64,000 nucleotides of DNA from an uncultured Acidobacteriota bacterium (GCA_963796275.1 CAWCKY010000006.1:1792001-1856000), one strand, 5' to 3'. Numbered from the stretch's first letter, positions 26,458 through 46,298 are shown. Numbers and translations are program-made. The notes: generated by a model from the letters alone, not told the origin.

Positions 26458-26814
26458 TATTCATCATCGGGGTCTGAACGAACAGCGGTGCCGCGAAGCG
26501 ATTCAGGCTTATTACGCCTCGATCACGTCGCGCCACGAATCGCACATTTGAGTTACTGGATATTTATCCAACACGTCGCTCGCCGGAGACGGTTTAGGAT
26601 AGTTCGAGCAACTCGGCGCACAGGCGTAATCGCCCAGACGAGAGCCAGCCGTTCTTTGCCGTCTGAGCATTACTGGTAGAACAATCACCACGAACCAATA
26701 CTGACGCCGCATTTCTGGCGGTTCCATTAACAGCCTACGAGCGAAGGGACGAACAAGTATCCAAAGATGAGAGCTCGTTCGACCTTGCTTGCGATAAATT
26801 ATGGAGGCCCATCA

Positions 26815-30009: not shown

Positions 30010-31854
30010 TTATTTGAAAGCCGCGATAGGATTTTTCAGGGTGCCCGCGAATTTCAGACAGCTGACGGGATCAGGATCGGTCAGATCGATCATTTGCTGA
30101 TGATTGGCCAGCTGCAGCCTGTTTAAGCAAGATCGTATGAACTCAGGCGCGAAAAGGTCGTAACGTGCGAATTTATCCTTCAATTCTGGATGTAATCGCT
30201 GATACTCCAGTACACACTTAGCTACCTGTTCCCAGAACCGCGTTTCAGGGTAGTCGCTGTGCTCAATCAGTATTTGCGCCATGTATCGAAAGATACAATC
30301 GAAAACATCGATGAAGATGGATAGTGTTTTCAGTTCTTCCGGGACCGATATTGACAGGCGTTGTATGTTTTCGGGCAGCTTAATCTCGGTATTCATTACG
30401 CCCGTCTCCTCCGCGATGTCCTTCAGAATCGCGCGCACAGGCACGTTATTCTGTAATACCAGTATCAGGTTTTCACAGTGAGGCATAAAGACCATGTCGT
30501 ACGCATAAAAACAATGTAACAAGGGGCTCAGGTAACAGCTCAGATATTGCTGGAGCCAGCTGGTTGTGCTCGTTCCGGATGATTTAATCAATTCCGGCAA
30601 CAACGCCGTCCCGTCACGGTCAATGTGGAGAAGGGAAGCCATTGTCATGAGACGTTGACCCGGTTGTATCGTCGGCACCGGGCTTTCACGCCAGAGAACT
30701 GCCAGCATTTTCTTATAGGGGCTGCTGCCTTTCACGGCCTTTTCGTAATAGACATTCTGATAACCCACGGTGGCGACTTCGCGCAGTATGCTGAATCCCT
30801 TCTCCTGAAGATAGGCGTCCTCCTCAATCACCTTGTTTATCCATTCATTGATCTCTGGTGTCGTGCGCATATAGTAAGGGGAAAGACCACGCATGAATCC
30901 CATGTTCAGTATGGATAGCGATGTTTTTACATAGAATTTGTGTGGGTTGCTGATATTAAAAAATGTTCGGATAGATTGCTGCGCCAGGTACTCATCCTTG
31001 CTGAACCCTAGGCACACCAGATTACGAGAAGCGATATCAGGTGCAAATATCATGGCCAATTTGTGATACCACTGCCATGGGTGTACGGGAAAAAGAATAT
31101 AGGAGGCCGGATCCAGTCCTTGCGCTTCCAGTATCTGGTCGAATGATTGCAGTGTGGGTTCATCCAGCTCTTGTCGCAGAATATCTCGGTATGTCAGTCC
31201 CTTGATACTAGAAAATTCGGCTCTGCTCTTGTGTGCGGCAACCCAGATTAGCATTACAGGCGTCGCCGCTTCGGGAGCATAGGCCCTGTAATCGACCGCG
31301 TCGAAACCGATACGACCGTTGTTCGCGACGAATACTGGATGCCCTTCCATCATCGCACTCTCTACCTCCTGAAAACCGGCTCGCGTCAGATCGCCGGCAC
31401 CTGGTCCCTCCTTCGCATGCTTGAATGCGCTGCCATATAGAGTGCTGGTGATCTCTTCCATATATGTTGGAAGCATAGCCGGGGGAATCCCCAGGCTCTC
31501 GCTGAATTCGATGATAAAGTTGAGGGAATCCAGCGGCTCTCTCTTGTCACCGACGAATTTTTCGATCGAGTCTTTATCGATATACCAGTGATCCAGACTG
31601 AGCTTCCGCGCGCGAAAACGATATTCAATATTAGGCAGGTCGGCAGACAACACATAGTTGCCCCATCCGCCTTTAGAATATTGCAGCTTGGGATGTATCA
31701 ATAATTCGTGCGCAAATTCACTGATGGCCTTGCGAATGTGCAACGCATTTACTTTAGCCCATAATTCGGGTCGGAGATTGATCGCTGCCAGTTCGGGGGA
31801 CGATTCAATGGATGTTTTCATTTGAAGATTTCTTGTTGTTGTTGTTAGATTCAT
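30010..31854 (-). CDS. desD: NRPS-independent siderophore synthetase, IucA/IucC family (DesD/AlcC-like)
   Basis: EGHPVFVANNGRIGF, PVHPWQW, QQSIRTF, NMGFMRGLS, FMPHCEN, KDIAEE. The start may be 31821. Confidence 0.9.
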   Translation of the reverse strand: MNLTTTTRNLQMKTSIESSPELAAINLRPELWAKVNALHIRKAISEFAHELLIHPKLQYSKGGWGNYVLSADLPNIEYRFRARKLSLDHWYIDKDSIEKFVGDKREPLDSLNFIIEFSESLGIPPAMLPTYMEEITSTLYGSAFKHAKEGPGAGDLTRAGFQEVESAMMEGHPVFVANNGRIGFDAVDYRAYAPEAATPVMLIWVAAHKSRAEFSSIKGLTYRDILRQELDEPTLQSFDQILEAQGLDPASYILFPVHPWQWYHKLAMIFAPDIASRNLVCLGFSKDEYLAQQSIRTFFNISNPHKFYVKTSLSILNMGFMRGLSPYYMRTTPEINEWINKVIEEDAYLQEKGFSILREVATVGYQNVYYEKAVKGSSPYKKMLAVLWRESPVPTIQPGQRLMTMASLLHIDRDGTALLPELIKSSGTSTTSWLQQYLSCYLSPLLHCFYAYDMVFMPHCENLILVLQNNVPVRAILKDIAEETGVMNTEIKLPENIQRLSISVPEELKTLSIFIDVFDCIFRYMAQILIEHSDYPETRFWEQVAKCVLEYQRLHPELKDKFARYDLFAPEFIRSCLNRLQLANHQQMIDLTDPDPVSCLKFAGTLKNPIAAFK

Positions 31855-32428
31855 ATTGTTCTCTAGTGCAAAACCCCAGATATGCTGTTTTATTGGGTAA
31901 ATCGATTATTTGTTGATACTCGAACCCCGCCCGCTTGTTCAGAATATGTATCTTTTCGTTTCTGACATCCGGTTCTACTACTATTCGGCTCACTCTTGCA
32001 TCACTGAACATGAACTCCATGAGCACGGTAAATACATGCCAGGTGAAATTGGAAATAGGCTGATTCGGAGGTGCAACGAGGATGTGCATCCCGTAATCTC
32101 CCGGTTGAACATCGTAGAATTTACCGACTTGATCCTCCATCGCCCGGTAACATTCGAGGAGAAATACAGGCTTGCCATCGTAAATGCCCAGAAAAACCCG
32201 CGAATGTTCAAGTATCTTTATATAGGCTGCTTCCACCTCTTCTATTGAGCTACCCTGCATTCCCCAGTATTTTGCATACTCCCTGGTCACCCAACCATGT
32301 ATAAGCGGAATGTCATCCGGCATATGTAAATGGCGTAGGTGGAAATCTCCCAAGCCCGGGACATGTTTATTAAATATAAACTCGCTCAAACTCTCCGTGC
32401 GCTCCGTGATTGTTTGCTTGTTTTCCAT
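31805..32428 (-). CDS. desC: Siderophore N-acyltransferase (DesC/AlcB-like GNAT)
   Basis: HGWV..YWGM, DYGMHILVAP, RIVVEPDVRN. Confidence 0.88.
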   Translation of the reverse strand: MENKQTITERTESLSEFIFNKHVPGLGDFHLRHLHMPDDIPLIHGWVTREYAKYWGMQGSSIEEVEAAYIKILEHSRVFLGIYDGKPVFLLECYRAMEDQVGKFYDVQPGDYGMHILVAPPNQPISNFTWHVFTVLMEFMFSDARVSRIVVEPDVRNEKIHILNKRAGFEYQQIIDLPNKTAYLGFCTREQYESNNNNKKSSNENIH

Positions 32429-33759
32429 TCTTGTATGTTTTGATTGGGCTCAATACAATTGGCCTCCTCATCAAGAGCGGCAAACCGCTGGAAAGCAATC
32501 TTTCCTTCGATCGGGTAATACTCTTTGCCGGTTATTTCTTTGATGATGTAAGAATTACGGTAACAGGCCATGCCTAAATCGGGTGTTACGAACCCATGAG
32601 TGTGGAGCTCCGCATTCTGGACGTAGATTTCGGAGCCATTCTTGTCGATACTATAGTTCCGGTTGACATCAAATCGCCCTTTCTCGTCCCATTTAATACG
32701 TGAGGAAATCCTGTCTATAAAAGCCGGAATCTGATAGGTATACCCTGTAGCTAATACCAGGCCTTCCGTGGAATGTTGGTAGTATTTACCCTCTTCTCGT
32801 TGATGAAATTCCAATTTAAAAATGTTATCAGCTACATTGAAGTCCACATTCATCAGCTCGGAGCTGGTACGCAGAGTTATTTTGATGTCGTTAGTAAGGC
32901 TTTTCGTGTAAAGCAGATCATATATGTCATTGATCAAATCAAAGTTGATCCCCTTATACAGCTGCTTATGCTCTTTCACCATTTGATCTCTTCTTTGAGA
33001 GGGCAGGGCATAGAAATAATCCACATACTCCGGCGAGGTCATCTCCAACGTCAGCTTGCTGTATTCCAAGGGGAAGAACCTGGGCGAGCGGGTGATCCAG
33101 TTAAGTTCGTAGCCGTACTTATCGATCTCTTGCAGGAGGTCGTAGTAGATCTCGGCTGCGCTTTGCCCGCTACCGAGCACCGTAATAGACTTTTTCCCTT
33201 GAAGTCTCTGCTTGTGATCAAGGTAAGAAGCCGAGTGGACAGGATCGCCGAGCAGGTCTTTGCAACAAGCCGGCACATAGGGAACGGTACCGGTTCCCAG
33301 CACAAGCTTCCTCCCTCTGTAGATGTTAGTCTTACCGCTCACAGCACATTTTGCGATAATGACATAACATTTCTGTTCTTCAGAGTATTCTATATGCTCG
33401 ACTTGCGTATTAAATCGAATGTTGGATAGCCTGGTTGCCGCCCACTGGCAGTACCTGTTGAATTCGTTTCGCAGTAAAAAAAAGTTCTGCCTGATGTAGA
33501 ACGAGTATATCCGCCCCTGTTCCTTGGTATAGTTTAAAAAACTGAACGGACTCGTCGGGTCAGCCAATGTCACCAGGTCCGCCATGAACGGTACCTGTAA
33601 CGTGCTATCCTGCAAAAGCATTCCGGGATGCCAATTGAAACTTTCTCTTTTATCCAGAAATAAGCCATTCAATTCATCGATAGGCTCGGAAAGGCATGCC
33701 AGGCCCAGGTTGAATGGCCCGACGCCTATGCCGACAAAGTCATATATTTCATCATTCAT
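32386..33759 (-). CDS. desB: Lysine/diamine N-hydroxylase (DesB/AlcA-like flavoprotein)
   Basis: GIGVGPFNL, WHPGMLL, GSGQSAAE, LATGY, PDLGMACYRN. Confidence 0.9.
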   Translation of the reverse strand: MNDEIYDFVGIGVGPFNLGLACLSEPIDELNGLFLDKRESFNWHPGMLLQDSTLQVPFMADLVTLADPTSPFSFLNYTKEQGRIYSFYIRQNFFLLRNEFNRYCQWAATRLSNIRFNTQVEHIEYSEEQKCYVIIAKCAVSGKTNIYRGRKLVLGTGTVPYVPACCKDLLGDPVHSASYLDHKQRLQGKKSITVLGSGQSAAEIYYDLLQEIDKYGYELNWITRSPRFFPLEYSKLTLEMTSPEYVDYFYALPSQRRDQMVKEHKQLYKGINFDLINDIYDLLYTKSLTNDIKITLRTSSELMNVDFNVADNIFKLEFHQREEGKYYQHSTEGLVLATGYTYQIPAFIDRISSRIKWDEKGRFDVNRNYSIDKNGSEIYVQNAELHTHGFVTPDLGMACYRNSYIIKEITGKEYYPIEGKIAFQRFAALDEEANCIEPNQNIQEWKTSKQSRSARRV

Positions 33760-35314
33760 TGTTGTTCTCTATGCGGCTTGAAGACTGGTTGAAATATCGC
33801 TGTCCGTATTCTTTGATCAGGTTCAATATTTCTTGGATGTCATGAATCGTGGTCATGGGGTTGAGCAGTGTAAACTTCAAGTATTGTCTTTCGTTTACTT
33901 TGCTGCCTGCCACTACAGCTTCTCCAGATCTGAAAAGCGCTTTTCGGATGTATGCGTTGGCATCGTCGATTCCGTTCTCCGAATAAACTCCGGCAGGGCG
34001 ATAACGGAACACGAGTGTACTCAACTCAGGCTGGTGTAGCGCTTCGAAGGTCCCATCAGAAATGAGCAACGTATATGTCTCTTTCGCCAAATCAACAACC
34101 TTGTCGAAGGCTTTTCCGATGTTGTCGGCACCCATTGTTCTCAAGGTTAACCAGAGCTTTAGGGCATCGAATCTTCTGGTCGTCTGAATGCTCTTGTTGA
34201 CCAGGTTGGGAGTCCCTTCTTTAAGTTGACTTAACGGATTCAGGTAATCTGCATGATGCGTAAAAAATGACAGGTTCTTTTTATTCCTCACGAAGAAAGC
34301 GCCACAACTCACCGGCTGAAAGAATGATTTGTGATAATCCACGGTAACAGAATCTGAATACTGAATTCCGTCCAGCAGTTTTCTGTGTTTTTCGGAGATG
34401 AGCAGGCCGCAACCATATGCCGCATCCGTATGCATCCATAAACCGTAATTACGGCATATTTCTGCTATTTCCATTATGGGATCGATGCTCCCGAAATCGG
34501 TTGTTCCGACGGTAGCAACCACAGCCATAGGCATTAAGCCTTGAGCGAAGCAACTTCTGATCTCCTTTTCCAACTCGGAAACGTTCATTTTAAAATGGTC
34601 GTCGCAGGGCACAGGGATGACAGCCACATACCCCAGACCAAGTATTGCTGCCGCCTTCTGGATGCTGAAATGGCACGCCTGCGAGGCGAAAATCCTCAAT
34701 TTGTTATAGCCATTTGGTAATCCCTGAACCTGGATGCTGTGTCCCAATCTGCTTGAGCAGTACGCATCACGAGCCAGAAGCGTCGCCATCAGATTGGATT
34801 GCGTCCCTCCACTGGTAAAAATCCCGTCCGCCTTGGGGCCCAGGCCGATCTTCTCCGCCGTCCAATCGATGAGCTTCTGCTCTATCAATGTACCGCCGGC
34901 GCTCTGGTCCCACGTGTCCAATGAAGAGTTGATCGACGTTAGTATCAATTCGGCCAGGATAGCCGGCACGACTATCGGGCAGTTGAGATGGGCTACATAT
35001 TTGGGATGATGGAAGTAGATGGCATGATTCAGGTAAAGCTCCTCAATCTCTTCCAGAGCTTTCGAAAGACGATCAAATGACTGATCTAAATCTACCCCTT
35101 CGAATTTTATCGCCAACTCATGAGGCAGCACACCGCTAAATGGCTTATTCGCTCCCGATACCTTTTTTTGTACCAGGTCGATGCCTTTCAGAATTGTCTC
35201 TTTATATCTATTTAAACTTTGATGATTGAATAAGAAGGATTTATCGGAAAGTGGATCTATGGTTTTATCGAGCTGATTTTCGAGTTCCATCAAAGCGCCA
35301 GTGTTATTGGACAT
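33752..35314 (-). CDS. desA: Group II PLP-dependent decarboxylase (DesA-like)
   Basis: AHLNCP, WDQSAG, FTSGGTQSN, GTTDFGSIDP, HTDAAYG, DYHK (PLP Lys). Confidence 0.9.
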   Translation of the reverse strand: MSNNTGALMELENQLDKTIDPLSDKSFLFNHQSLNRYKETILKGIDLVQKKVSGANKPFSGVLPHELAIKFEGVDLDQSFDRLSKALEEIEELYLNHAIYFHHPKYVAHLNCPIVVPAILAELILTSINSSLDTWDQSAGGTLIEQKLIDWTAEKIGLGPKADGIFTSGGTQSNLMATLLARDAYCSSRLGHSIQVQGLPNGYNKLRIFASQACHFSIQKAAAILGLGYVAVIPVPCDDHFKMNVSELEKEIRSCFAQGLMPMAVVATVGTTDFGSIDPIMEIAEICRNYGLWMHTDAAYGCGLLISEKHRKLLDGIQYSDSVTVDYHKSFFQPVSCGAFFVRNKKNLSFFTHHADYLNPLSQLKEGTPNLVNKSIQTTRRFDALKLWLTLRTMGADNIGKAFDKVVDLAKETYTLLISDGTFEALHQPELSTLVFRYRPAGVYSENGIDDANAYIRKALFRSGEAVVAGSKVNERQYLKFTLLNPMTTIHDIQEILNLIKEYGQRYFNQSSSRIENNNE

Positions 35315-35476: not shown

Positions 35477-35543
35477 TGAAATCAATTATGAAATCCATTT
35501 TCATAATGATCCGAAATGTACAGAATCAAGTTGGGAATGTCAA
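35477..35543 (-). promoter_or_regulatory. Sigma70 promoter and Fur-like box(es) of the siderophore operon
   Basis: TTGACA(35543-38)-17bp-TACATT(35520-15). Palindrome ATTATGAAA-TCCAT-TTTCATAAT (35485-35507) with 7-1-7 core TGAAATC-C-ATTTTCA; second weaker site TGAAATCAATTATGA at 35477. Confidence 0.78.
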
Positions 35544-35670
35544 GAATATTTTTGCAAGTAATTACAGGAGGTTCGCTAATACCAGGGATTTTGGTTCATC
35601 TGAGCGGTCGAGCATTTCGTATACAAATCAGTCACTTGTGGCGCCGGCCTCCTTTCGCGTGCGTGGGCAT

Positions 35671-36687
35671 TCACTTGTATGCGACGCCGGCGCTGGCCGC
35701 CCCCGCCAAAGGAATCACTTCGGTTTCATGGAAGCCCACCTTCCGACACCAATCGAACAGATCTGCAGACGTAAAATCGAAAGCGTCTCCGAACTCGATC
35801 AGCATATTGAGCGACATCAGCAACCCAAAGGCGTTTTCTCGCCGAGCGTCGTCTATGAGATTCTCGACAACGACGAACGCGCCTCCGGGAGGTAAGGCAT
35901 CGTAGGCCGCCTGAATCAACTGCATCTTTTTGTCCAGGTTCCAGTCGTGGAGAATCAATCCCATGGTGATCACATCAACCCTGGGGAACGGATCGGAGAA
36001 GAAATTCAACGATTGTGCGGAAACGCGATCAGTGAGCCCGGCGGCAGATATCTTGCGTTCAGCGAACGCCGTGACAGCTGGCAAATCAGTGGTGAGGCAG
36101 CGGAGATGAGGATGCCGCCTGGCGACGATCATGGCTAATTGGCCGGAAGCACCTCCCACATCACAGAGCGATCGATAGCGAGAGAAATCAAATTTTTCCG
36201 CTAAGGCTTTGAAATTTGCCGTAGAGATTCCCGTCATGGCATCCATGACTTGCTCAAGGCGCTCGGGTTGACTATAGATTTCCTGGAACACCGGGCCGCC
36301 GATATGTTTGATCTCGTTCTGAGGTTGTCCTGTTCTAAGCCCTTCCGTAAGGTCGCCCCAGAAGCGGTAGAGCCGATCGTTCGCCATCTCGAGGATGCCG
36401 CCCACATATTCCGGATTGTTGCGATCCAGAAAGGCGGCGGTCTCCTGCGTATTACGATAGCGCGCGGACGGCCCGTCGCCATCCCGTTCCAGGAATTTCA
36501 GCGCAACGAGGGTGTCGAAAAAGTCCGGATTCGCGCGTGCGTTAAGTCCAAGTTGCTCCTGCAACTCTCGTCCGGTCATTGATTTGCTTCCCAGCTTCGT
36601 GAAGATGCGCAGCTCGACAGCTGAGAGAAGTGTTTTCGCAGGCCAGAACCCGAGTCCGACCTCGATAATTCGCGAAGGTGACAGCAT
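35671..36687 (-). CDS. SAM-dependent O-methyltransferase with dimerisation domain
   Basis: CDVGGASG, NFF, ILHDW, ALPPGG. Confidence 0.88.
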   Translation of the reverse strand: MLSPSRIIEVGLGFWPAKTLLSAVELRIFTKLGSKSMTGRELQEQLGLNARANPDFFDTLVALKFLERDGDGPSARYRNTQETAAFLDRNNPEYVGGILEMANDRLYRFWGDLTEGLRTGQPQNEIKHIGGPVFQEIYSQPERLEQVMDAMTGISTANFKALAEKFDFSRYRSLCDVGGASGQLAMIVARRHPHLRCLTTDLPAVTAFAERKISAAGLTDRVSAQSLNFFSDPFPRVDVITMGLILHDWNLDKKMQLIQAAYDALPPGGAFVVVENLIDDARRENAFGLLMSLNMLIEFGDAFDFTSADLFDWCRKVGFHETEVIPLAGAASAGVAYK

Positions 36688-36955: not shown

Positions 36956-37756
36956 CTAAGCTCTCCGAGAAATTGACGACATCAATTTTTCTATGCGGCC
37001 GGCATCTGGTTCGTTGGCCCAATGTCCATCGACCTTAAAATACGATCCGATGATGAATCCGTCAGCCGCTTTATAAAATTCCGCGATGTTATCGGTATCT
37101 ATCCCCGAACCGAGCAGGACCGGCAGCTTGCAATGCGCTTTGATCTCTTGCACGTCCGCGAGCTTGGGGGGATCGCCGGTGACGTTTCCGGTTACGATCA
37201 CGGCGTCACCCCTCATGAACTCTACCGCCTCGGCTGTGGCGCTCAAGCTGATGTCGGCTGTGATCGCGTGTGACGAATGTTTCTTCTTGACGTCGGCCCA
37301 GACCTGTACGCGGTCGGCTCCAATCATCCTGCGATAGCGCAACACCCTGGCAGCCGACGACTCGATCAAACCTTCGTCCGCGACGTGGGCGAAGGCATAT
37401 CCTTCGGCTCGAATGAAATCGAGGCCGGCGGCATGCGCTACGGCAATTGCCTCAATGTTGGCTCCTGCGAGGATTTGAACGCCTGTCGGCAGACGGCTTT
37501 CCTGCCTGACCCGCCGGCCGATGACAGCCATGGCCGCGACGATCTCGGGACCGACTGATCCGCGCAGATAAGGAACGTCGGACATATTCTCTATGATCAA
37601 GCCATCTATCCGGCCGTCGCGATAAAGGGCAGCCTCGCGTTCGGCCTGAGCGATGATTTGATCGATCGATTGGCTATTGGCAGGTGTTCCCGGCAGAGCT
37701 CCGACGTGGATCATGCCGATGATCGGTTTCGGTTTGGAAAATAGTGAAGCGAGCAT
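36956..37756 (-). CDS. BtpA/SgcQ family TIM-barrel protein
   Basis: IGMIHVGALPG, IIENMSDVPY, ADVKKKH, IVTG..TG, LGSG. Confidence 0.88.
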   Translation of the reverse strand: MLASLFSKPKPIIGMIHVGALPGTPANSQSIDQIIAQAEREAALYRDGRIDGLIIENMSDVPYLRGSVGPEIVAAMAVIGRRVRQESRLPTGVQILAGANIEAIAVAHAAGLDFIRAEGYAFAHVADEGLIESSAARVLRYRRMIGADRVQVWADVKKKHSSHAITADISLSATAEAVEFMRGDAVIVTGNVTGDPPKLADVQEIKAHCKLPVLLGSGIDTDNIAEFYKAADGFIIGSYFKVDGHWANEPDAGRIEKLMSSISRRA

Positions 37757-37923
37757 AAGCAAACGATCGAACTATTGATTTCAGCATTCCTCAACAGCCT
37801 CCATCAACCTCGATGGAGAATAGTAGCACAGCACTGCTGAAGGAAATAAAACGTCATGAAGCTGACATCGCATTCTCCTGGCCTTCGCGCCAAATCGATT
37901 TCAAACACCGAAACGAAGTATCA

Positions 37924-38886
37924 TCAAGGATTCGCGAACTCAACAGACGTTACAGTGGCATCCGGCAAAGCCGATCGTGAGCAAAAATAGTCCAGCATAC
38001 TATATTGAACAAAACAGCTCTTCTCTTCCGACCGGCAGGTCATCGGATTTTCGATCTCTGAATCCTTGCGTGAAAAACATACCGTGTGAATGATTCCGTC
38101 CTCAGTAGATTCGAAGGTAACACGAGAGGAGTTGTGATCAACGGTCTCTTCTCGCACGAAGCGCAAACTGTCGATACTGATATCGCCGGATTCAAGTCGG
38201 ACGAAGAATTCGCCGGCCTGCGCATTCTTGGGGTAACAACCTCTCCCCCGGTAGTTGGCCAGAAATATCCGTCCCTCCTTGTACTCGCCCGCGACGCGCA
38301 CGGCATCGGCTTCCGTTACGCGCCCGTAAAACAACCCGTGGGGAAAACAGACTATATTGGCGGCAAATCTGTCGCCGCCGACGTGAGACGATGCCCAGAC
38401 GTTGTAACCGAATTTCTCCCGCATGAATTCATAGGTGCGAAGCCCATATTTCGCGCAACATTTGTCATGAGCTCCATCAGTGCAAACCAGGTAAAGGGGC
38501 GATCTCTCGCAAGCTCCTGCCGTATCGTTCCGCGCCCGTGCCAAATCGCAAATATCCAGATCGAGCAGTTCTTTGTAATCTTTGAGCTTGAAGTGCTGAA
38601 CGTACGGCGAGGATTCGCGCGCCACGACGATGAAAAAATTGATGGCGCCGGTTTGCGAATAGCTTTGACGAATCAATTGGAATCTTCCGCCATTGATGCG
38701 CTCCAGAGTCGAGCTCAGGCTCTCTTTCACCACATCAGGTATTCGATTATCGACCAGCGCTTTTTGTCCCCATGGTTCGGGGTGTTCGAGCAGTAACCAG
38801 ATGTTGCCTCTGCTTGCCGTCCCGAAAATAGGTTCGCAAGCGTTTCTTGATAAATCGGAACAATAATATACAGCTTTGTTATTCAT
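37924..38886 (-). CDS. Sucrase/ferredoxin-like (thioredoxin-like 2Fe-2S, Apd1/Aim32-type) protein
   Basis: YCS..EPIFGTA..WLLLEHP.PWG, LVCTDGAHDKCC, SSHVGGDRFA, YRGR; ATGA overlap with the JmjC stop. Confidence 0.85.
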   Translation of the reverse strand: MNNKAVYYCSDLSRNACEPIFGTASRGNIWLLLEHPEPWGQKALVDNRIPDVVKESLSSTLERINGGRFQLIRQSYSQTGAINFFIVVARESSPYVQHFKLKDYKELLDLDICDLARARNDTAGACERSPLYLVCTDGAHDKCCAKYGLRTYEFMREKFGYNVWASSHVGGDRFAANIVCFPHGLFYGRVTEADAVRVAGEYKEGRIFLANYRGRGCYPKNAQAGEFFVRLESGDISIDSLRFVREETVDHNSSRVTFESTEDGIIHTVCFSRKDSEIENPMTCRSEEKSCFVQYSMLDYFCSRSALPDATVTSVEFANP

Positions 38887-40121
38887 TGAACATGAAAAGT
38901 GTCGTCTTCGACGATCACCGCCAATCCTTTAACAACGAGTTCTCCTGCGAATTTGCGCACGGCCATGCGGTCGAGCCGCTTAGCCGACGCCTGGCATAGT
39001 TCCTGTATGGAATGGACCTGGCCGTCTTTCAGTATTTGCAGAATGCTTTCCACTGATCGGTCGAATTGCCACCGCCTTCCGTGCGATAGAAATTCCATAT
39101 GTGATTCATTCACCTGAATCTCCACCGGGCGCGGGGATGTTATTCGTATTCCAACCTTATCGCCGGGAGGCAATCCTTCATCCAGCGCGCTCCATGGGAG
39201 ATTGAAATGCGGACGAGGTGCCGCCATGGCATCCGAACGGTTGAAAAATCGTGTGAGCACATCGCGATCGCACAGGCGGAGAAAAGCTGAACGAATCTGG
39301 TCGGCATATGCCGCCTGTTCATCAGCGGTCGCATATCGCGGCAAATCCATTCGCACGAACGACTCCGCGCAGAGTTGTTCCGTCAGCCATTTAAGCAGAT
39401 CGGCGCCCGTGAGATTTGAAATCCCGATCGTGAGGTGCATGGTCGGTTCCGCCAGGGGAATTGCGACATGCCACCAGCCTCGCGGTATGTAGAGCATATC
39501 TCCGTCTTCAAGTATCCCTTCCCAGAGAGGATCATCGGCCGGAGGCTGACTCTCCACGAGGTCTTTTGCGAGGGGGTGGTGTCTGGTAGGACGATAAACT
39601 TTCCATTGCTTTCTGCCGGTTAATTGAATGATGAGAACTTCGTGATCGTCCCAGTGCAGGTCGAATCCCTGCGAACTCTTCCACCCGGCATAGAGGTTCA
39701 TCTGAATGGGAACGCGAAACGCCCATTCGAGAGATTCGGCGAGCCGCGTGAGCGGTCTATGCAACTCATCGACTCCATCGAGGACGAGCGTCGCTCCCTG
39801 ATAGAGATGCTCTGTTATAACAGTGGGAAGCAGGTGCGGGACGCGTGAATAGTTCTGCCGGCGGCTTACGGTATATTTTATATAACCTTCTGCAGGGATG
39901 ATCTTCCCATTCATCGCCAGCCGCAATCGCGGCGGTTCCAGCCGGTGCTGCATGAGGATTTCGTTCAGGCGCTGCCAGTTGAGAAGCCCGGTGAACTTTC
40001 CCTTCCATCCAGGAAGATGTTTCACCGACCTGCACCAATCATCCTTTAAAAATTTTTCAACCGCGTAAGGAGACAATATCTCGGGAAGCGTGGAGGGAAG
40101 TTGCGTCTTTTCCATACCCAT
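38883..40121 (-). CDS. JmjC/cupin 2-oxoglutarate-Fe(II) oxygenase (ROXA/NO66-like) with C-terminal winged-helix-like domain
   Basis: GATLVLD, NLYA, GFDLHWDDHEV..Q..GRKQW, GDMLYIPRGWWH (HxD...H triad). Confidence 0.88.
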   Translation of the reverse strand: MGMEKTQLPSTLPEILSPYAVEKFLKDDWCRSVKHLPGWKGKFTGLLNWQRLNEILMQHRLEPPRLRLAMNGKIIPAEGYIKYTVSRRQNYSRVPHLLPTVITEHLYQGATLVLDGVDELHRPLTRLAESLEWAFRVPIQMNLYAGWKSSQGFDLHWDDHEVLIIQLTGRKQWKVYRPTRHHPLAKDLVESQPPADDPLWEGILEDGDMLYIPRGWWHVAIPLAEPTMHLTIGISNLTGADLLKWLTEQLCAESFVRMDLPRYATADEQAAYADQIRSAFLRLCDRDVLTRFFNRSDAMAAPRPHFNLPWSALDEGLPPGDKVGIRITSPRPVEIQVNESHMEFLSHGRRWQFDRSVESILQILKDGQVHSIQELCQASAKRLDRMAVRKFAGELVVKGLAVIVEDDTFHVQ

Positions 40122-40159
40122 CGAGATTTACATGTTCATCGCGAACCGAATCTCGTATC

Positions 40160-40223
40160 TATTCCTTCTCTTCCTATTATTTTATTTCTAGTATTTTTAT
40201 TATTTCTATTATTCCTATTCTAA
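40160..40223 (-). repeat. Imperfect A-rich 9-nt tandem repeat (TAATAGRAA-like, about 5 copies)
   Basis: Minus strand reads GAATAGGAA TAATAGAAA TAATAAAAA TACTAGAAA TAAAA TAATAGGAA. Confidence 0.6.
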
Positions 40224-40348
40224 AGATAGCGACTACCGCCGAACTTCCGAACCTTCATCGGCGATCGACGATAGTCGTTGGCGAAATGTTATTTCATCTT
40301 CCCCGGTTTCTATTTCGATGCCGACGACTGGGAAAAATATTTACTCAC

Positions 40349-40513
40349 CTATTCCTGGTCGTAATGTTTATCGCTCCCATCGTCATCTGTTTCCTCGGAA
40401 CGCGTTTCCATATACCAGGGACGAATCTCCTCCAAATTTTCCGATTTGATGATAAAGCCCGACTCTCGGACGTTGGTTGTCTCTTTTACTGACTGTTGTT
40501 TCGATTGCTCCAT
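40349..40513 (-). CDS. 54-aa peptide with acidic tail, candidate precursor peptide (not in the ORF track)
   Basis: GGAGG-N8-ATG; translation MEQSKQQSVKETTNVRESGFIIKSENLEEIRPWYMETRSEETDDDGSDKHYDQE; first ORF after a consensus-like promoter. Confidence 0.75.
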   Translation of the reverse strand: MEQSKQQSVKETTNVRESGFIIKSENLEEIRPWYMETRSEETDDDGSDKHYDQE

Positions 40514-40636
40514 TACAGGTTCCTCCATGGAATCAGGTATCGCCTCGATACCGAGGCCTACACAAGGTAGGGAATATGGGTAAACATCTTCCCCGAACAG
40601 GTTTATCGAAAGTTAATAGTTGTCGATTATCGATCT

Positions 40637-40682
40637 TGAAAATCGATTTCAGGATTATGAGTTTTCTTGGAGGCGGAGTCAA
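40637..40682 (-). promoter_or_regulatory. Sigma70 promoter with Fur-like box upstream of the peptide-JmjC-ferredoxin genes
   Basis: TTGACT(40682-77)-17bp-CATAAT(40659-54), followed 2 bp later by TGAAATC-G-ATTTTCA (40651-40637). Confidence 0.75.
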
Positions 40683-40820
40683 GTAGGTCTTCAAAATTTG
40701 CCATTGTTTGAAGACAAATAGGGGTCTTTTCCGCTGTAGGCGTAACTTTGGCGAGTGAGAACTTGAATGTAGAGGCTCCTACTTTTTTGTGAGTCATGGA
40801 GCGCAACAAGCGGGCCAGTG

Positions 40821-41108
40821 TCAGTGAGTACCATTGGGTCTGGAATCATCCTGGAGTGAATCGAGGGCCTCAGAGAGCGAACGTCCCTGACTGTCGCGTC
40901 CGTTCGGGAAATTTCGTCGAACCCATTCGTCGGGCGTAATTCCTTGTTGGACTGCTACGTTCGTCAAGGCGGAAGATCTCTTTACTTCCTTATCATGGTT
41001 TTCTTTGAGATAACCTCCGAATACCGTATGCGTCGGCGGAGATGTCGGGTCGGGGATACTGCTATCGATTGAACCGATAAGGTCGGAGGATGTGCACGTA
41101 TCGCTCAC
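40821..41108 (-). CDS. Possible small hypothetical protein or gene remnant
   Basis: 95-aa ORF; C-terminal half looks protein-like (AVQQGITPDEWVRRNFP); weak start. Confidence 0.3.
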   Translation of the reverse strand: MSDTCTSSDLIGSIDSSIPDPTSPPTHTVFGGYLKENHDKEVKRSSALTNVAVQQGITPDEWVRRNFPNGRDSQGRSLSEALDSLQDDSRPNGTH

Positions 41109-41397
41109 CAGAGAAATTCATTTTCTCCGGAGATGATGTGAGTGATCGAGTATTTGAAGACGTTGCTCCACTCTTACAGAGATCAAATCCAGTTGGTTCT
41201 CTAAAAAGAGATCTAAGGAAGTATTCGGGAGCCGAGAGCTACTGATTGTGTGCACCGATTTCGGTGTGCCCTCTACCACCGACGAAGCAATAATTTGCTA
41301 ATTTGCATATCGTGCCAGCCAAGATTGAGAACCCATAGCCACTATCTACCTTACAGCCAACGACCACTGCATCACCCGCCTTGCTCCGACGATATAT

Positions 41398-44300
41398 TCA
41401 AAAAGTAAACCTCACCCTAAACTGCACCTGCCTTGGAACAGTCGTCGTACTCGTCGTCCTCCCAAAGCTGGTCGCCGTAATACTGACAGGTGTTACCCCA
41501 AACGTTCCCCCGGTCGGCACTTCGAAGATCGGGTGATTGAAGGCATTGACCATCTCCGCTCTGATCTCCATTCTTACCCTCTCTTTAACTAACGGCATTG
41601 CTTTAGCCAACGACAGGTCGGCAGTAACAAATTTCGGGCTATAAAGATAAACAAACGCTCCGAACTGCCCAGCACTCTCGGCCGGTGAGAGAAAACTGCT
41701 ATCAGCCTGTCCATTGTCACCCGTCAGCTTCGGATCAATGAAATAGACATCCGGCCCTGACTTGAACACACCGACCATTTTCTGTAGATCAGATGCCGTC
41801 AACCCATTCAGTACCACGCCCGAGTCCGATTGGTTGACCGTCATGCGGCCGCTGCTCAGTTTGAACGGTAGGCCGGATTGCATGCGGAAGATCGTCCCGA
41901 CCGTCCAACCGCCGAGCACGCCATTGAGAACAGGGTTTTTCATCGAGAACTTGCGGCTTTGCCCCACCGGCAGATCATAAGTGCCGTAAGCCTGGAATAC
42001 GTGCCTGATGTCGAAGGTCGAAGGCCCATAGTCTAATCGCCGATTCCGAAGCGTGGCGAAGTTACCGATGTTATCCACGTTCTTGTTATAGCGGTCATTC
42101 ATCGCGTGGGCATATGTATAGTTCATGTTCATCGTCAGCCCGTGCGTAATCCGCTGGCGAAACTCGATCTGAAGCCCATTGTAGTTGGACGAGGAGTTAT
42201 CGCTCAGAACATTGGCCGTTCCCAGGAACGGGTTGAGCCGGAAAAGGTTGATCGGATACTGACCGGGAGTATTGAACCCGAGATTGGCGCAGGGACCGAA
42301 CCCATTGCCAACCAGTTTGCAGAAATAGGTCGAGGTCGAGGCGAAGGTGTTTGCTAACGCTCCTGCCTGCCCAGTCCGAAGCAGATTGATAAATGTACCG
42401 TTTGCAAAACCCAGGTTCGGGGCCACGCCCTCGAAGGCCGCAGCGAAGATCGGCGTCGCCGCTTGACCCGGATATCCATTATTGGCGAAGCCGGTTATTC
42501 CATTCGCTGTATTGATCGCCAGATTACTTTGGGCATCCTGGAACTGCTTAAGGAAACCATTCTCGAATATATTTACTTCGTTGATATTGTACGTACGCCA
42601 CAATCTCACGCCGCGGTTGCCCGCGTATCGAACCTCAAGCACGCTCCCTTGCCCGAATTCGCGTTGAATACTGGCCGACCACGTTTGCACGTAGGGCGCC
42701 CTGATCTTCGGATCGATTGTGGAGATGGTAGTGTTAGTAGTGAAGGCGAAATTCGACAGCGCCAGCGGAGAACCGAAACTGCCGGGGGATAGATTGAATA
42801 AGGGCAGCGGATCGCCCAGACTTAATGTACCAGCGGCAAAGTCGACGCCGGGAACCAGATTGCCGGTCTGTCGCAGCCCCGGATTATTGCCCGCGTTGTT
42901 GGTGAAGTTGAGCATGCCTTCGGAGTAATAGCTGATCGAATAACCGCCCCTGAAGACCGTCTTGCGGTCGCCGAACAACCTTCCCCTCAGACCATTCTGA
43001 AAGCTCGGGTTCCACGCTATTCCGAGATGCGGTCCGGGATTGATGAAATCACGGCTGTACGCATGCGAACGCTGCTGAATGTTGGGATTGGCGATCCCAG
43101 GCAACGAACCCGGATTGAAGAGATTGGGCGAGTTGTCGTCACCGCCCAATGCAGAGCCCGAAGGCCCGAAGAGGTCCAGCAATGTCGGACTGGTATAGAT
43201 GTCGTTGGTGTTAAAGCTATCACCCTGGAAATCCCAGCGCAGGCCATAATTGAGCGTCAGCGAGCGATTGAAGCGCCACGAGTCCTGAAAATAGAGCCCG
43301 AAGGATGTCTGTCTCTCGCGTCTGGTGAAAGGTTGATCGACGGCGTACTGCTTGGACTTCTCATCCACGTTGACGGATTTGGCCACGTTCGAGATGCGCC
43401 CCGTCAGCAGCGCATAGAGGGCCAGGGCGTCGTTGCGCGCATCGGGGGGAATATTGGGAAGCGCGCTGTTATCGAAGATATCGTCGACCGGATCGCCGCC
43501 AATGACTCCGAAAGTGTAGCGCGGGATGCCGGCATCGCCGAGAGTACCGACATTTACGCGGGAGCGGATGTAATTGCCGCCGAAACTGAACGAGTGGTTA
43601 CCGCGCTGGTAATAGAAATTGTTCGCCAGGTTATAGACCGGATTGTTCCGCGGCTGGAACGTGGTCTCAAAGCCCGCGTTATTCATCGCTTCCAGTCCGC
43701 TCGCCAGCGTCAGCGGGAAATTCAACAGACTGGGTTGGTAGAGGCTCCGGTCATATCCGATATTGAATATCTCCTGGGTACCCTGGATGCCGAAATTGAA
43801 CTCGTTGATCATGTTCGGTCGAAGAGTCCAGGTGGCGCTGGCGTTGGTGATGTAGGGGTTGGAGATTTGCCCAACCGATTGCTCCGTGGAGAAAGTGCCC
43901 GGCAGGACCGTTCCCCGAAACCCACGGTCGGTCACGTTCCGGTTATAAAAGTCGGAGACGCTCAGGCGTAACTTCTCCGTCACCTGATAATCGATGCGCG
44001 CCACCGGGAATTGATTGGTGACGGGAGACGGCGCCACCCACCGCACTCTGTTCCGAAACAAGTCCAACGGCGAGACCGCCCCGGCCGAAGTCGATGATTG
44101 AATCTTCTGCAGCTGTGCGGCAATGATCGGATTGACCGTGCCCGGGAACCCCCTCTCCTGCGCCTTATCGAGCAGGTTTTCCGTATGCTGGATGCCATCG
44201 CTTCCGACATAGGTGAAGAAGCCCATCTGGGCAGCGGGGGTCAATACACGAGCTTCGAATTCTTGCGACTGAGGGGTCTTCACATGGGCATAACTCACAA

Positions 44301-45210
44301 AGAAGAAAAGTTTGTCCCTGATGATCGGCCCGCCGATCGCACCGCCCTGGTCGTTGCGAATGAAGACGGGCCGGCGGATATTGCGGGCATTGTTGAACCA
44401 GTTATTCGCCTTGAGCGCCGAGTTTTCATGCTGCCAGAAGACTTCGCCGTGAAAGGCGTTGGTTCCAGACTTGATGACGTACTGGATCTGTATGGCACCC
44501 TGTCCCGTGCTGTTGGCGCCGAGATTCGAGGTTGCAACAGTGACCTCCTGCACGGCCTCCAGCCTGGGTGTGACGAAGGCAAAGAAGCTTGTGCCGCCGC
44601 TCTTGAACCGCTGGGAGTTGTTAGCGATGCCGTTGAGGGTGATATTGATCGCGCCCCCGGGTAAGCCGTTAAAGGTGCTGTCGCGTGAGTTGGTTCCTTG
44701 CTGGGCGCCGGCCTGCAGCAGCGCGAAGGGCAGGGTATCGCGGCCAGTCAGTGGCAGGTCCTGCAGATACTTCTGATCCACCGTGTCCGAGATGGTGGTC
44801 GTCGTCGTATGCAATACCTGGGCTCCGCCCTGGACCTCTACGACCTGGTTGACGGCCCCGACTTTCAGGGTAACCGTCTGATTGCTGGTACGCGCCGCAT
44901 AGACGATCAGGCCTTTGTAAGAAGTAACTTCAAAACCCTGCTTCGTGACGGTCAGGGTATAACTCCCCGGTAAGACGGTTGGAAAGACAAAACCGCCTTC
45001 AGTGCTAGCGGTCGCAGTCTGGATGGCCTTGGTCTCCTCGTTTTGTAACTGCACCTCGGCTCCGGGGATAACTGCGCCCGACTGATCCTGCACAGTACCG
45101 ACTATCTGCCCGGTCGTAGCAATCTGGGCAACCGTCGATGAAACAGCGCCCAGAGCGAATATCAGGGCGATAGCCGGCATTACAACTGCGATCGGTCTTG
45201 TTCTCGTCAT
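41398..45210 (-). CDS. TonB-dependent receptor with carboxypeptidase-regulatory N-domain
   Basis: GGAGG RBS before ATG 45210, signal peptide, GTVQDQSGAVIPGA, LPLTGR, terminal RQVQFRVRFTF. Confidence 0.9.
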   Translation of the reverse strand: MTRTRPIAVVMPAIALIFALGAVSSTVAQIATTGQIVGTVQDQSGAVIPGAEVQLQNEETKAIQTATASTEGGFVFPTVLPGSYTLTVTKQGFEVTSYKGLIVYAARTSNQTVTLKVGAVNQVVEVQGGAQVLHTTTTTISDTVDQKYLQDLPLTGRDTLPFALLQAGAQQGTNSRDSTFNGLPGGAINITLNGIANNSQRFKSGGTSFFAFVTPRLEAVQEVTVATSNLGANSTGQGAIQIQYVIKSGTNAFHGEVFWQHENSALKANNWFNNARNIRRPVFIRNDQGGAIGGPIIRDKLFFFVSYAHVKTPQSQEFEARVLTPAAQMGFFTYVGSDGIQHTENLLDKAQERGFPGTVNPIIAAQLQKIQSSTSAGAVSPLDLFRNRVRWVAPSPVTNQFPVARIDYQVTEKLRLSVSDFYNRNVTDRGFRGTVLPGTFSTEQSVGQISNPYITNASATWTLRPNMINEFNFGIQGTQEIFNIGYDRSLYQPSLLNFPLTLASGLEAMNNAGFETTFQPRNNPVYNLANNFYYQRGNHSFSFGGNYIRSRVNVGTLGDAGIPRYTFGVIGGDPVDDIFDNSALPNIPPDARNDALALYALLTGRISNVAKSVNVDEKSKQYAVDQPFTRRERQTSFGLYFQDSWRFNRSLTLNYGLRWDFQGDSFNTNDIYTSPTLLDLFGPSGSALGGDDNSPNLFNPGSLPGIANPNIQQRSHAYSRDFINPGPHLGIAWNPSFQNGLRGRLFGDRKTVFRGGYSISYYSEGMLNFTNNAGNNPGLRQTGNLVPGVDFAAGTLSLGDPLPLFNLSPGSFGSPLALSNFAFTTNTTISTIDPKIRAPYVQTWSASIQREFGQGSVLEVRYAGNRGVRLWRTYNINEVNIFENGFLKQFQDAQSNLAINTANGITGFANNGYPGQAATPIFAAAFEGVAPNLGFANGTFINLLRTGQAGALANTFASTSTYFCKLVGNGFGPCANLGFNTPGQYPINLFRLNPFLGTANVLSDNSSSNYNGLQIEFRQRITHGLTMNMNYTYAHAMNDRYNKNVDNIGNFATLRNRRLDYGPSTFDIRHVFQAYGTYDLPVGQSRKFSMKNPVLNGVLGGWTVGTIFRMQSGLPFKLSSGRMTVNQSDSGVVLNGLTASDLQKMVGVFKSGPDVYFIDPKLTGDNGQADSSFLSPAESAGQFGAFVYLYSPKFVTADLSLAKAMPLVKERVRMEIRAEMVNAFNHPIFEVPTGGTFGVTPVSITATSFGRTTSTTTVPRQVQFRVRFTF

Positions 45211-45224
45211 GCGAGTCCTCCACG

Positions 45225-46298
45225 CTACTCTTTCGATTCGTCCAATAATGCAGCGAGATGCTGCTTCCACAAGGCAGGCATGGTATGCGTGCCGTGTCCG
45301 CGCGTCTGGTCGCTGATCGGTATCAGGATGAAGCGCCCGCGTTTTACCCGCTTGATCTCCCGTTCTGCGATGCCCAGCTCGGGCGGGTTGACCTGGTCAT
45401 CGGCTGAGTTAATGGCCACCAGCGGAGCCTTGATGCTCTCGAGCTTCGGCGCCGGGTTGTAATCGCGCGAGGCATCGAACTGGTAGATCATATCGTTGGC
45501 ATCCCTGTTGTTGAGCGAAGCGCGCACCCGGCTGTCGAACTGCTGGTCGGCCTCATCGCGCGTTGGCGCCTGCTTCTGCATTTGCAGCGGGCTGCTGGAC
45601 ATAAATGTCATGGCGTAAATGGCAGAGGTCAAACCGCGCACTGGCTGCGTCTTGTATTCTCCTTTATTCCACTCCGGATCGTTTTTGATTGAGTCCATGA
45701 CCATCCGGCGAATCATCCGGTTGCGGCCCGCGATCTGGACTGGGAGGCTGGCAAGCGGCATCAGCGCATCCATAAAGTCGGGATACTTCTCGCCCCAGAC
45801 CCAGGTATGCATCCCGCCCATCGAGGTCCCCATAACCAGCCGCAGATGTTTCACGCCCAGGTGTTCGGTCAGCAGCCGGTAATGCGCCGTGACCATGTCG
45901 TTGTAGTTATAGCGCGGAAAGCGCATCCGCATTCCATCGCTCGGCTTCGATGACTGGCCGTGCCCGATGCCGTCCGGCAGAATGATGTAATGCTTCGTCG
46001 CATCCAACAGTTGTCCGGGGCCGTAGAGCACGTCGGCAAATTGCCGTGAGAGGAATTGCGCGCCCGAGCCGGTTGTGCCGTGCAGAATCAGCACAGCGTT
46101 GCGCACCTCGCCCGCCGCGTCTTTGCTCGGGCTCCCGATCGTGCGGTAGTGCAGTTTCATCTCGGGCAGCGTCTCACCGCTTTCAAAACGGAAGTCCCGG
46201 ATCGTAAAGTCGCCTTCGACGGGAACGGGCGATTGTTGCGCCATCGCGGACATTCGGATGCAGACCAGAACGACCGCCAGTAGAATTGCTTTCTTCAT
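45225..46298 (-). CDS. Secreted alpha/beta hydrolase, homoserine-O-acetyltransferase-like fold
   Basis: Signal peptide; FRFESGETL, LHGT, GTSMGG, SADD, GHGTH. Confidence 0.82.
   Translation of the reverse strand: MKKAILLAVVLVCIRMSAMAQQSPVPVEGDFTIRDFRFESGETLPEMKLHYRTIGSPSKDAAGEVRNAVLILHGTTGSGAQFLSRQFADVLYGPGQLLDATKHYIILPDGIGHGQSSKPSDGMRMRFPRYNYNDMVTAHYRLLTEHLGVKHLRLVMGTSMGGMHTWVWGEKYPDFMDALMPLASLPVQIAGRNRMIRRMVMDSIKNDPEWNKGEYKTQPVRGLTSAIYAMTFMSSSPLQMQKQAPTRDEADQQFDSRVRASLNNRDANDMIYQFDASRDYNPAPKLESIKAPLVAINSADDQVNPPELGIAEREIKRVKRGRFILIPISDQTRGHGTHTMPALWKQHLAALLDESKE

Follow-up and report, generated by a model that had tools for sequence, protein, structure and literature searches.

A candidate three-gene operon for leader-guided oxidation of an acidic peptide in an uncultured Acidobacteriota bacterium

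The three genes and their conservation

A stretch of 64,000 nucleotides from the genome of an uncultured Acidobacteriota bacterium (GCA_963796275.1, CAWCKY010000006.1:1792001-1856000; the whole of this stretch is called the window below) carries, on its minus strand, three consecutive genes for a short acidic precursor-like peptide, a JmjC oxygenase and a Suc_Fer-like iron-sulfur (Fe-S) protein (Table 1). With modest confidence the trio is considered a self-contained operon for leader-guided peptide oxidation. All features that a sequence-only reading had described here were found where it had placed them, including the open reading frame (ORF) of 54 codons behind its ribosome-binding site as the first gene after the promoter. 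Its proposal that the Suc_Fer-like gene is translationally coupled to the oxygenase gene was borne out as well, since the stop codon of the latter and the ATG of the former overlap as ATGA and the product matches PF06999. In the genome of the organism (G000, 9.46 Mb) each of the three genes is present in a single copy.

The locus was compared with the best 80 of 191 JmjC relatives in a species-representative genome collection (loci L001 to L080, with L001 the closest relative), nearly all of which stem from metagenome-assembled genomes of Pyrinomonadaceae, Blastocatellia or other Acidobacteriota, with JmjC identities of 44-64%. The presence of Suc_Fer-like and DesABCD-like genes was determined using tblastn with the window proteins against these loci, including the fetched flanks; upstream peptides were detected with a strict motif regular expression, by reading its misses by eye, and then with a relaxed expression. 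A Suc_Fer-like gene directly follows the JmjC gene in 79 of the 80 loci, the exception (L052) ending at a contig edge, and an acidic ORF lies directly upstream of the JmjC gene in all 80, as the sequence-only reading had led one to expect of such gene pairs. The strict expression recovered this ORF in 64 loci; the remaining 16 comprised 13 motif variants and three loci (L005, L013, L076) that are cut by the contig end and in which the acidic tail is visible, and the relaxed expression recovered 80 peptides in 77 loci. The acidic ORF usually ends 10-60 nt before the JmjC match (85-200 nt in a few loci).

When all ORFs of the 80 loci were clustered, no other widely shared gene family was found, the next largest cluster being represented in 28 loci. 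The next largest real family was a hybrid histidine kinase (an assignment typed by Pfam in two examples), encoded upstream on the same strand in 23 loci. The kinase gene stands just upstream of the peptide gene (e.g., L007:1857-4109 and L066:3388-5361), with HisKA, HATPase_c and receiver domains and in some cases GAF, and could have a regulatory role specific to certain lineages. A conserved protease or exporter beside the trio was not found across the 80 loci, which agrees with the earlier remark that neither is adjacent; a protease may be encoded elsewhere. In L001 the trio is alone on its strand, the genes after the Suc_Fer-like gene being on the opposite one.

Among 300 other genomes sampled from the same phylum, JmjC matches at E ≤ 1e-40 were obtained in only two, both at about 31% identity, and the system is therefore patchy and not housekeeping. 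One of these two distant homologues (L095:2995-4191, genome G279; 31% identity) has its HxD...H ligands replaced (RWNDQD and WWVRS) and is apparently non-catalytic as judged by these residues; its context differs, and a Suc_Fer-like neighbour was not apparent by eye, so that this locus is uninformative on the association of the trio.

Regarding the acidic peptides, no Pfam or NCBIfam family was matched. The family consensus is MSEQxN..EE.E...SGLLLSVEPL, followed by repeats; within the N-terminal motif SGLLLSVEPL the S, G and L positions are at least 90% conserved, whereas the tails vary, with peptides of 52 to 154 amino acids (median about 110). The tails consist of Asp/Gly/Ser/Thr repeats in DxDG[TS]D units, the most frequent hexamers being DADGTD, DSDGTD and DSDGSD. 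Asp accounts for 23% of the residues in 78 peptides, Gly and Ser for 14% each, Ala for 10% and Thr for 9%; Cys is absent from all 78, and the median net charge is about -27 (-27.5 over the 78, -27 over the 50 peptides of alignment A3). Behind the fixed motif stand long, repetitive tails that evolve quickly, the pattern of a leader plus a variable core. As judged from the sequences, a putative short precursor with conserved leader and variable core stands beside a modifying enzyme in 80 of 80 loci, the arrangement by which ribosomally made peptides with post-translational modifications (RiPPs) are recognized. In the ESM Atlas one long form is present, only as a 'hypothetical protein' in unnamed Acidobacteriota clusters, and its model is disordered (mean pLDDT 0.32; pLDDT, predicted local distance difference test).

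The window peptide is a short form that can be aligned with the long ones. Its orthologue in L001 (52 amino acids, against 54 in the window) is 63% identical, and the motif reads SGFIIKSENL in the window and SKFILKSEVL in L001, both retaining a short acidic tail. An alternative in-frame ATG at 40528 would give 59 amino acids; the start of the L001 orthologue matches the ATG at 40513 instead. Between the two small ORFs the proportions of nonsynonymous and synonymous differences are pN 0.21 and pS 0.92 (synonymous sites being saturated), which argues for a gene under purifying selection. Related loci have AGGAGGAG as ribosome-binding site at the corresponding place before the peptide gene.

Three loci (L044, L065, L078) have two precursor genes each; in the second peptide of L044 (L044:5593-5853) the leader is kept as SDLLLSVEPL and a core of DPIVE(D/E) repeats replaces DxDG[TS]D. 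Subsets of the long forms (L040, L045, L053, L057, L061, L072; and L025, L039, L052, L071) have a second conserved block near the C-terminus of the tail, with the sequences GLDADGMDPLGI, ESESGLGGENPLG(I/L)NRERV, AMDIIGDNADG and IKIDSKDA ends; such blocks could be extra recognition or processing sites.

Table 1. Features of the trio locus, with positions counted from the first nucleotide of the window, and further matches of the operator pattern in the genome
Feature	Position	Strand	Basis
Sigma-70-like promoter TTGACT-17-CATAAT	40654..40682	-	10/12 consensus positions
Fur-like 7-1-7 palindrome TGAAATCGATTTTCA	40637..40651	-	Exact pattern match, begins 2 nt past the -10 hexamer
Ribosome-binding site GGAGGA	40521..40526	-	Read from the sequence, 7-8 nt before the ATG
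Precursor-like peptide gene, 54 amino acids	40349..40513	-	Motif residues 15-27 (VRESGFIIKSENL), acidic tail SEETDDDGSDKHYDQE
13-bp hairpin in spacer	40230..40277	-	Folded 251-nt stretch: z -2.04, minimum free energy -60.2 kcal/mol
AT-rich 9-nt tandem repeat, 4.2 copies	40182..40219	-	Overlaps a weak second promoter-like site
JmjC oxygenase gene, 412 amino acids	38883..40121	-	Pfam JmjC_2, 6e-27
Suc_Fer-like (Apd1/Aim32-type) thioredoxin-like ferredoxin gene, 320 amino acids	37924..38886	-	Pfam PF06999, 5e-19
Genome boxes outside the trio and the desA-like gene (G000)	C1:593547, C1:1229078, C2:242954, C6:1423014		Pattern match

The two enzymes and the predicted docking of the peptide

The JmjC protein matches Pfam JmjC_2 with 94.1 bits (cut-off 22). 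All of 73 homologues share H156, D158, H218 and K171 without exception, and the HxD...H triad is thus intact; K171 is aligned with the Lys of 'GEKHW' in MINA53, which we take to be the ligand of the C5 carboxylate of 2-oxoglutarate. Sequence matches in the PDB were MINA53 (5.8e-17), NO66, YxbC and YcfD. The AlphaFold (AF2) model (pLDDT 93.1) yielded full-length Foldseek matches to NO66 (the top hit, 7e-23), MINA53 and YcfD at about 20% identity. In the model the C-terminal domain has strands at 324-327, 341-346 and 349-354, followed by helices at 355-364, 372-378 and 385-397. By family profile, fold and catalytic residues the product is a ribosomal-oxygenase-type (cupin-4, PF08007) Fe(II)/2-oxoglutarate-dependent enzyme, and the description of an oxygenase with intact HxD..H and a C-terminal domain of winged-helix type, given before any comparison, stands on all three counts. 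Judged by the gene context, its putative target is the upstream peptide and not a ribosomal protein.

Binding of the peptide was modelled in one complex prediction for the JmjC protein (alignment A1) and the window peptide (alignment A3), in three runs and with controls. The complex scored 0.71 (0.71, 0.71 and 0.72 in the single runs) and the best control 0.00; the score mark was attained by 58 of 80 solved complexes and by two of 110 mismatched pairs, a calibration that is only approximate here as own alignments were supplied for this pair. Contact agreement between the runs was at least 50%, and the pLDDT of the partner was 52. The confident interface comprises peptide residues 15-27, i.e., the conserved motif, and JmjC residues 295-299, 314-316, 341-357 and 387-398. 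The residue pairs 354:20, 353:21, 352:22, 350:25 and 349:26 (JmjC:peptide) place the motif as an antiparallel strand on the third strand (349-354), packed on the third helix (385-397). That the leader motif docks on the C-terminal winged-helix domain is supported by the model, and the predicted geometry is the canonical one of a leader on a RiPP recognition element (RRE). The co-folding that had been proposed as a check is therefore in favour of binding at the level of prediction, and the middle of the peptide, called leader-like from the single sequence, is both the conserved motif of the family and the part predicted to dock.

The Suc_Fer-like protein matches PF06999 with 69.6 bits (cut-off 34.9), and its AF2 model (pLDDT 89.6) has extra N- and C-terminal domains. 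No sequence relative was found in the PDB. The top folds obtained with Foldseek were 1m2b, 1m2a and 1f37, the thioredoxin-like [2Fe-2S] ferredoxins of Aquifex, with probabilities of 0.99-1.00 and TMt of 0.64-0.75; by E value the best of these matches is weak (0.02, with a probability of 1.00 and TMt 0.75). Invariant in 61 sequences are C9, C135, C143, C144, H168, D172, C217 and C284, among which a ligand-like motif is formed by C135-X8-C144, 23 residues and H168-V-G-G-D172. It is close to the motif published for Apd1/Aim32 proteins, C-X8-C-X24-75-H-X-G-G-H (PMC11138216), whose closing His is replaced by Asp (D172) in all 61 sequences. The window protein shares PF06999, the thioredoxin-like ferredoxin core and C-X8-C...H-x-G-G with the Apd1/Aim32 proteins (IPR009737), among them CctD, and differs from them in its final ligand, in four more invariant Cys (C9, C143, C217, C284), in its extra domains and in its pairing with a JmjC enzyme. 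CctD, a Suc_Fer-like family protein, recurs in cyanobacterial siderophore transport clusters, with no role assigned to it (preprint 10.64898/2026.07.30.741596); its link to iron uptake genes is a further likeness.

Most Suc_Fer-like proteins from long-form loci have a basic net charge (median +5, alignment A2), and the partner of the short form in the window is acidic (-5); the charge may vary with how long the acidic tail is. No clear pattern of charge complementarity between the JmjC or Suc_Fer-like proteins and the peptides was found.

Promoter, operator motif and surroundings

The Fur-like palindrome at the predicted transcription start had been noted in the sequence-only reading, and for the genome of the window itself it was corroborated. 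Within the window the palindrome has three matches at two or fewer mismatches, against 0.56 expected, and two of 100 shuffles reach three. A second exact copy (35489-35503) and a copy with two mismatches (35477-35491) both follow the TTGACA-17-TACATT promoter of a desA-like decarboxylase gene. The pattern TGAAAWYSRWTTTCA has six matches in the 9.46-Mb genome, against about 0.3 expected by our own arithmetic. In addition to those of the trio operon and the desA-like gene there are four boxes of the TGAAAATnATTTTCA type, of which one starts 62 nt upstream of the gene for an iron permease (FTR1), one starts 326 nt upstream of the fur gene, one separates a TonB-dependent receptor gene from the divergent gene of a sigma-54 activator that has a Trp-halogenase-like domain, and one has no ORF of at least 100 amino acids starting within 350 nt. 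Looser matches (TGAAA-N5-TTTCA) number 25, of which 20 are outside long ORFs. As the palindrome is shared by the upstream regions of the fur, FTR1, TonB-dependent receptor and desA-like genes, it is read as the Fur box of this organism, and the trio operon is read as putatively Fur-controlled in the window genome. In L001 the box TGAAAACGATTTTCA lies 71 nt before the ATG of the peptide gene, which also has an upstream promoter-like TTGACA-17-TAGAAT.

The box differs from the classical Fur box, TGATAATnATTATCA. Against the classical 19-mer Fur consensus of E. coli type, the site scored 13 of 19, as did eight other places in the window, and one further site scored 14; this comparison was set aside. 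Promoter-type matches are not enriched in the region (two found, 4.6 expected in shuffles).

The spacer between the peptide and JmjC genes (227 nt) is AT-rich with short repeats, and the terminator scan called no terminator-like site in it. Its hairpin is a possible attenuator or mRNA stabilizer. The promoter scan gave a second, weak promoter-like site, TAGAAA-18-TAAAAT, at 40208-40179 (9/12 consensus positions). The spacer of L001 has a short repeat too, but one different from the 9-nt repeat of the window. An Rfam scan of 37000-41600 yielded only PK-repZ at 22.4 bits, below the gathering score of 44 and judged a chance match. When the conserved region ahead of the peptide gene in 61 long-form loci was folded with RNAalifold, no base pairs of a consensus RNA structure were obtained, and an apparent covariation in the flanks of the long-form -10 region was not supported.

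Downstream of the trio and on the same strand lies a complete DesABCD-like hydroxamate siderophore set of the type independent of nonribosomal peptide synthetases (30010-35314), with a pyridoxal phosphate (PLP) decarboxylase, a Lys/Orn N-monooxygenase, an Acetyltransf_8 protein and an IucA/IucC protein with FhuF domain; the desA-like gene has its own promoter and two Fur-like boxes (35477-35560). Between this set and the trio are genes for an O-methyltransferase (Methyltransf_2; 35671-36687, minus strand) and a BtpA-family protein (36956-37762, minus strand), which are not conserved beside the trio elsewhere; only L021 has an O-methyltransferase match, of 31%, about 5 kb off. Upstream of the trio a CarboxypepD_reg/outer-membrane-barrel protein of 1290 amino acids is encoded (41398-45270, minus strand), and on the other flank a CarboxypepD_reg plus outer-membrane-barrel protein of 819 amino acids (26767-29226, plus strand). 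Similar barrel proteins are encoded a few kb upstream in six related loci, including L002, L034, L044, L047 and L068 (about 2-4 kb), and matches are weaker in some further loci.

Proposed function and its alternatives

We read the system as a variant of RRE-guided, i.e., leader-guided, JmjC peptide modification. The N-terminal motif (SGLLLSVEPL; SGFIIKSENL in the window) would dock as an extra beta-strand on the C-terminal winged helix of the oxygenase, like a RiPP leader on its recognition element, and would thereby tether the Asp/Gly/Ser/Thr-rich tail near the HxD...H iron centre. We infer that the peptide is the substrate of the JmjC enzyme, its tail being oxidized, most probably by hydroxylation, because this is the default chemistry of the JmjC subfamily, and most probably on Asp, because this is the dominant residue of the tail. 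The Fe-S protein would be the redox partner, either keeping the iron of the oxygenase reduced or reducing a metal bound by the product. The modified full-length peptide would probably act inside the cell, because no protease or exporter is conserved. In the window genome and L001, repression by Fur would lead to induction of the operon by iron shortage.

Regarding known systems, the closest in sequence and fold over the full length are YcfD/RoxA, NO66 and MINA53, which share with the window enzyme the HxD...H triad, the Lys of 'GEK' in MINA53 and the three-domain layout. The window JmjC protein differs in being only about 20% identical to them, in its patchy distribution, in its constant linkage to an acidic peptide and an Fe-S protein, and in a C-terminal domain that is predicted to hold a peptide leader, a role for which, to our knowledge, the winged helix of ribosomal oxygenases has no precedent. 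With methanobactins, bufferins and beta-hydroxy-Asp siderophores only the proposed function is shared, namely metal binding by modified side chains under metal-responsive control; methanobactins and bufferins are made by MNIO/DUF692 enzymes that act on Cys, whereas the acidic peptides are devoid of Cys, and beta-hydroxy-Asp siderophores are non-ribosomal. JmjC enzymes proven to hydroxylate RiPP precursors are CzlI (curacozole; PMC11575548) and BipG (biphenomycin; PMC12707348). The likeness lies in a JmjC oxygenase encoded beside a precursor peptide and in an action dependent on flanking or leader sequence, which is proposed here; their clusters, however, contain many maturation genes, a protease and an exporter, as opposed to three conserved genes, and their targets are Phe and Orn in short cores, as opposed to an Asp/Gly/Ser/Thr repeat of 14 to more than 100 residues. 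CzlI is also set apart structurally, its top structural homologue being YxbC, whereas here the top hits are the three-domain ribosomal oxygenases. Fusions of RRE-like folds to JmjC (PF08007) domains have been described, and their bacterial homologues stand in contexts that resemble RiPP clusters (PMC12710340); in likeness to such RRE (PqqD-like) fusions, pairing with strand 3 and packing on helix 3 are predicted for the window leader, whereas an acidic-repeat precursor or Suc_Fer-like partner is not named in the available part of that report.

Several observations weigh against leader-guided oxidation in the service of iron. No residue of the acidic tail is confidently placed at the active site in the complex model, and since the docking geometry is that of canonical leader-RRE pairs, part of the high score may come from solved RRE complexes that the predictor has memorized. 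The JmjC proteins have a net charge near zero (median -2), with no evident basic surface for a polyanion, and the named ribosomal oxygenases among the PDB matches act on His or Arg of ribosomal proteins, not on Asp; FIH, a JmjC relative, is able to hydroxylate Asp. Genes for DesA, DesB, DesC and DesD were found in none of the 80 related loci within the fetched flanks, so that siderophore genes are unlinked to the trio. The expectation that Fur boxes would recur upstream of related peptide genes failed, as only L001 has one and the other 79 upstream regions of peptide genes are without the motif. Most long-form loci have a different, strongly conserved promoter-like element instead (cTTGtcgtttc, about 10 nt, CGTAATAAGCT/CATAATAATCT), which lies some 40-95 nt ahead of the start codon of the peptide gene and is followed by the strong ribosome-binding site AGGAGGAG (L002-L080; 78 start-defined peptide genes besides that of L001). 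Iron control is accordingly not general, and its support at the level of the motif is limited to the short-form lineage. The comparison covers the best 80 of the 191 relatives.

Part of this evidence would also suit an acidic peptide that sits on the winged helix as an adaptor, inhibitor or localization factor, the real target of the JmjC enzyme being a ribosomal protein or the Suc_Fer-like protein. The closeness of the enzyme to YcfD, NO66 and MINA53 in sequence and fold would fit such a target, the complex model backs binding of the motif only and leaves the tail unplaced, and the translational coupling of the JmjC and Suc_Fer-like genes suggests joint action of those two. We nevertheless consider this unlikely, as the system is patchy and not housekeeping in the phylum, long, repetitive and fast-evolving tails behind a fixed motif form the pattern of a leader plus variable core, and three loci have two peptide genes for one enzyme. 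That the small ORF is a chance ORF or the decayed, untranslated remnant of a long form is barely credible: it is only about half as long as the family median, a 227-nt AT-rich, repeat-bearing spacer stands in place of the long tail and no Pfam or NCBIfam family is matched, but the motif, the ribosome-binding site and a short acidic tail are all retained, the L001 short form shows the substitution pattern given above, and the motif is predicted to bind the JmjC protein.

The iron connection is open to two other explanations. A peptide that is modified without its product being an iron chelator, e.g., a disordered hyper-acidic protein for Ca or cation buffering, mineral interaction or desiccation protection in soil bacteria, with iron control secondary and lineage-specific, is again improbable in our view. 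The single Fur-like box among the related peptide genes, the DxDG[TS]D repeats of the long forms and their median net charge close to -27, the disordered Atlas model and the lack of a conserved iron gene beside the trio would accord with it; the operator motif of the window and L001, however, is that of the fur, FTR1, TonB-dependent receptor and desA-like promoters, siderophore transport clusters repeatedly contain relatives of the Fe-S protein (10.64898/2026.07.30.741596), and induction of two iron-requiring proteins under iron shortage would best suit iron acquisition. Alternatively, the JmjC and Suc_Fer-like proteins could be accessory or tailoring enzymes of the adjacent DesABCD-like siderophore cluster, the small ORF being incidental. 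The two genes do share their strand with the PLP decarboxylase and the rest of the set, which begin about 2.6 kb downstream of them, and both promoters bear the same operator motif, but this explanation is very unlikely given that DesA-D are missing from the fetched flanks of all 80 loci while the Suc_Fer-like gene is kept in 79 and the peptide in all, that the genes past the Suc_Fer-like gene in L001 are on the opposite strand, and that the desA-like gene has a promoter and boxes of its own.

Within leader-guided oxidation, the most specific version is an intracellular ribosomal metallophore, in which the JmjC enzyme would make many beta-hydroxy-Asp residues in the DxDG[TS]D repeats, the product would be a protein-sized polydentate binder of Fe(III), and the Asp-variant Apd1-like protein would be a dedicated reductase releasing Fe(II). 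This is regarded as possible but doubtful; if true, it would be the first physiological role for bacterial Suc_Fer-like proteins and for the ribosomal-oxygenase-type winged helix. A literature search, with subscription journals and supplements outside its reach, gave no paper that describes the trio, precursors with DxDG[TS]D repeats or the pairing of JmjC with a Suc_Fer-like protein. The action of JmjC enzymes on ribosomal peptides is only now emerging, and the known cases are in large conventional clusters, whereas the minimal three-gene unit recurs in about 190 species of soil Acidobacteriota and is unusual in its hyper-acidic repetitive core, its Asp-variant Apd1-like partner and its lack of a conserved protease or exporter. 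Through the link to the Fur box the iron hypothesis can be tested directly in this lineage. Should the peptide prove to be hydroxylated, Suc_Fer-like proteins would gain a function open to testing and the winged helix of ribosomal-oxygenase-type enzymes a part in peptide binding, and the beta-hydroxy-Asp ligands, known to date from non-ribosomal siderophores, would possibly have a ribosomal origin as well.

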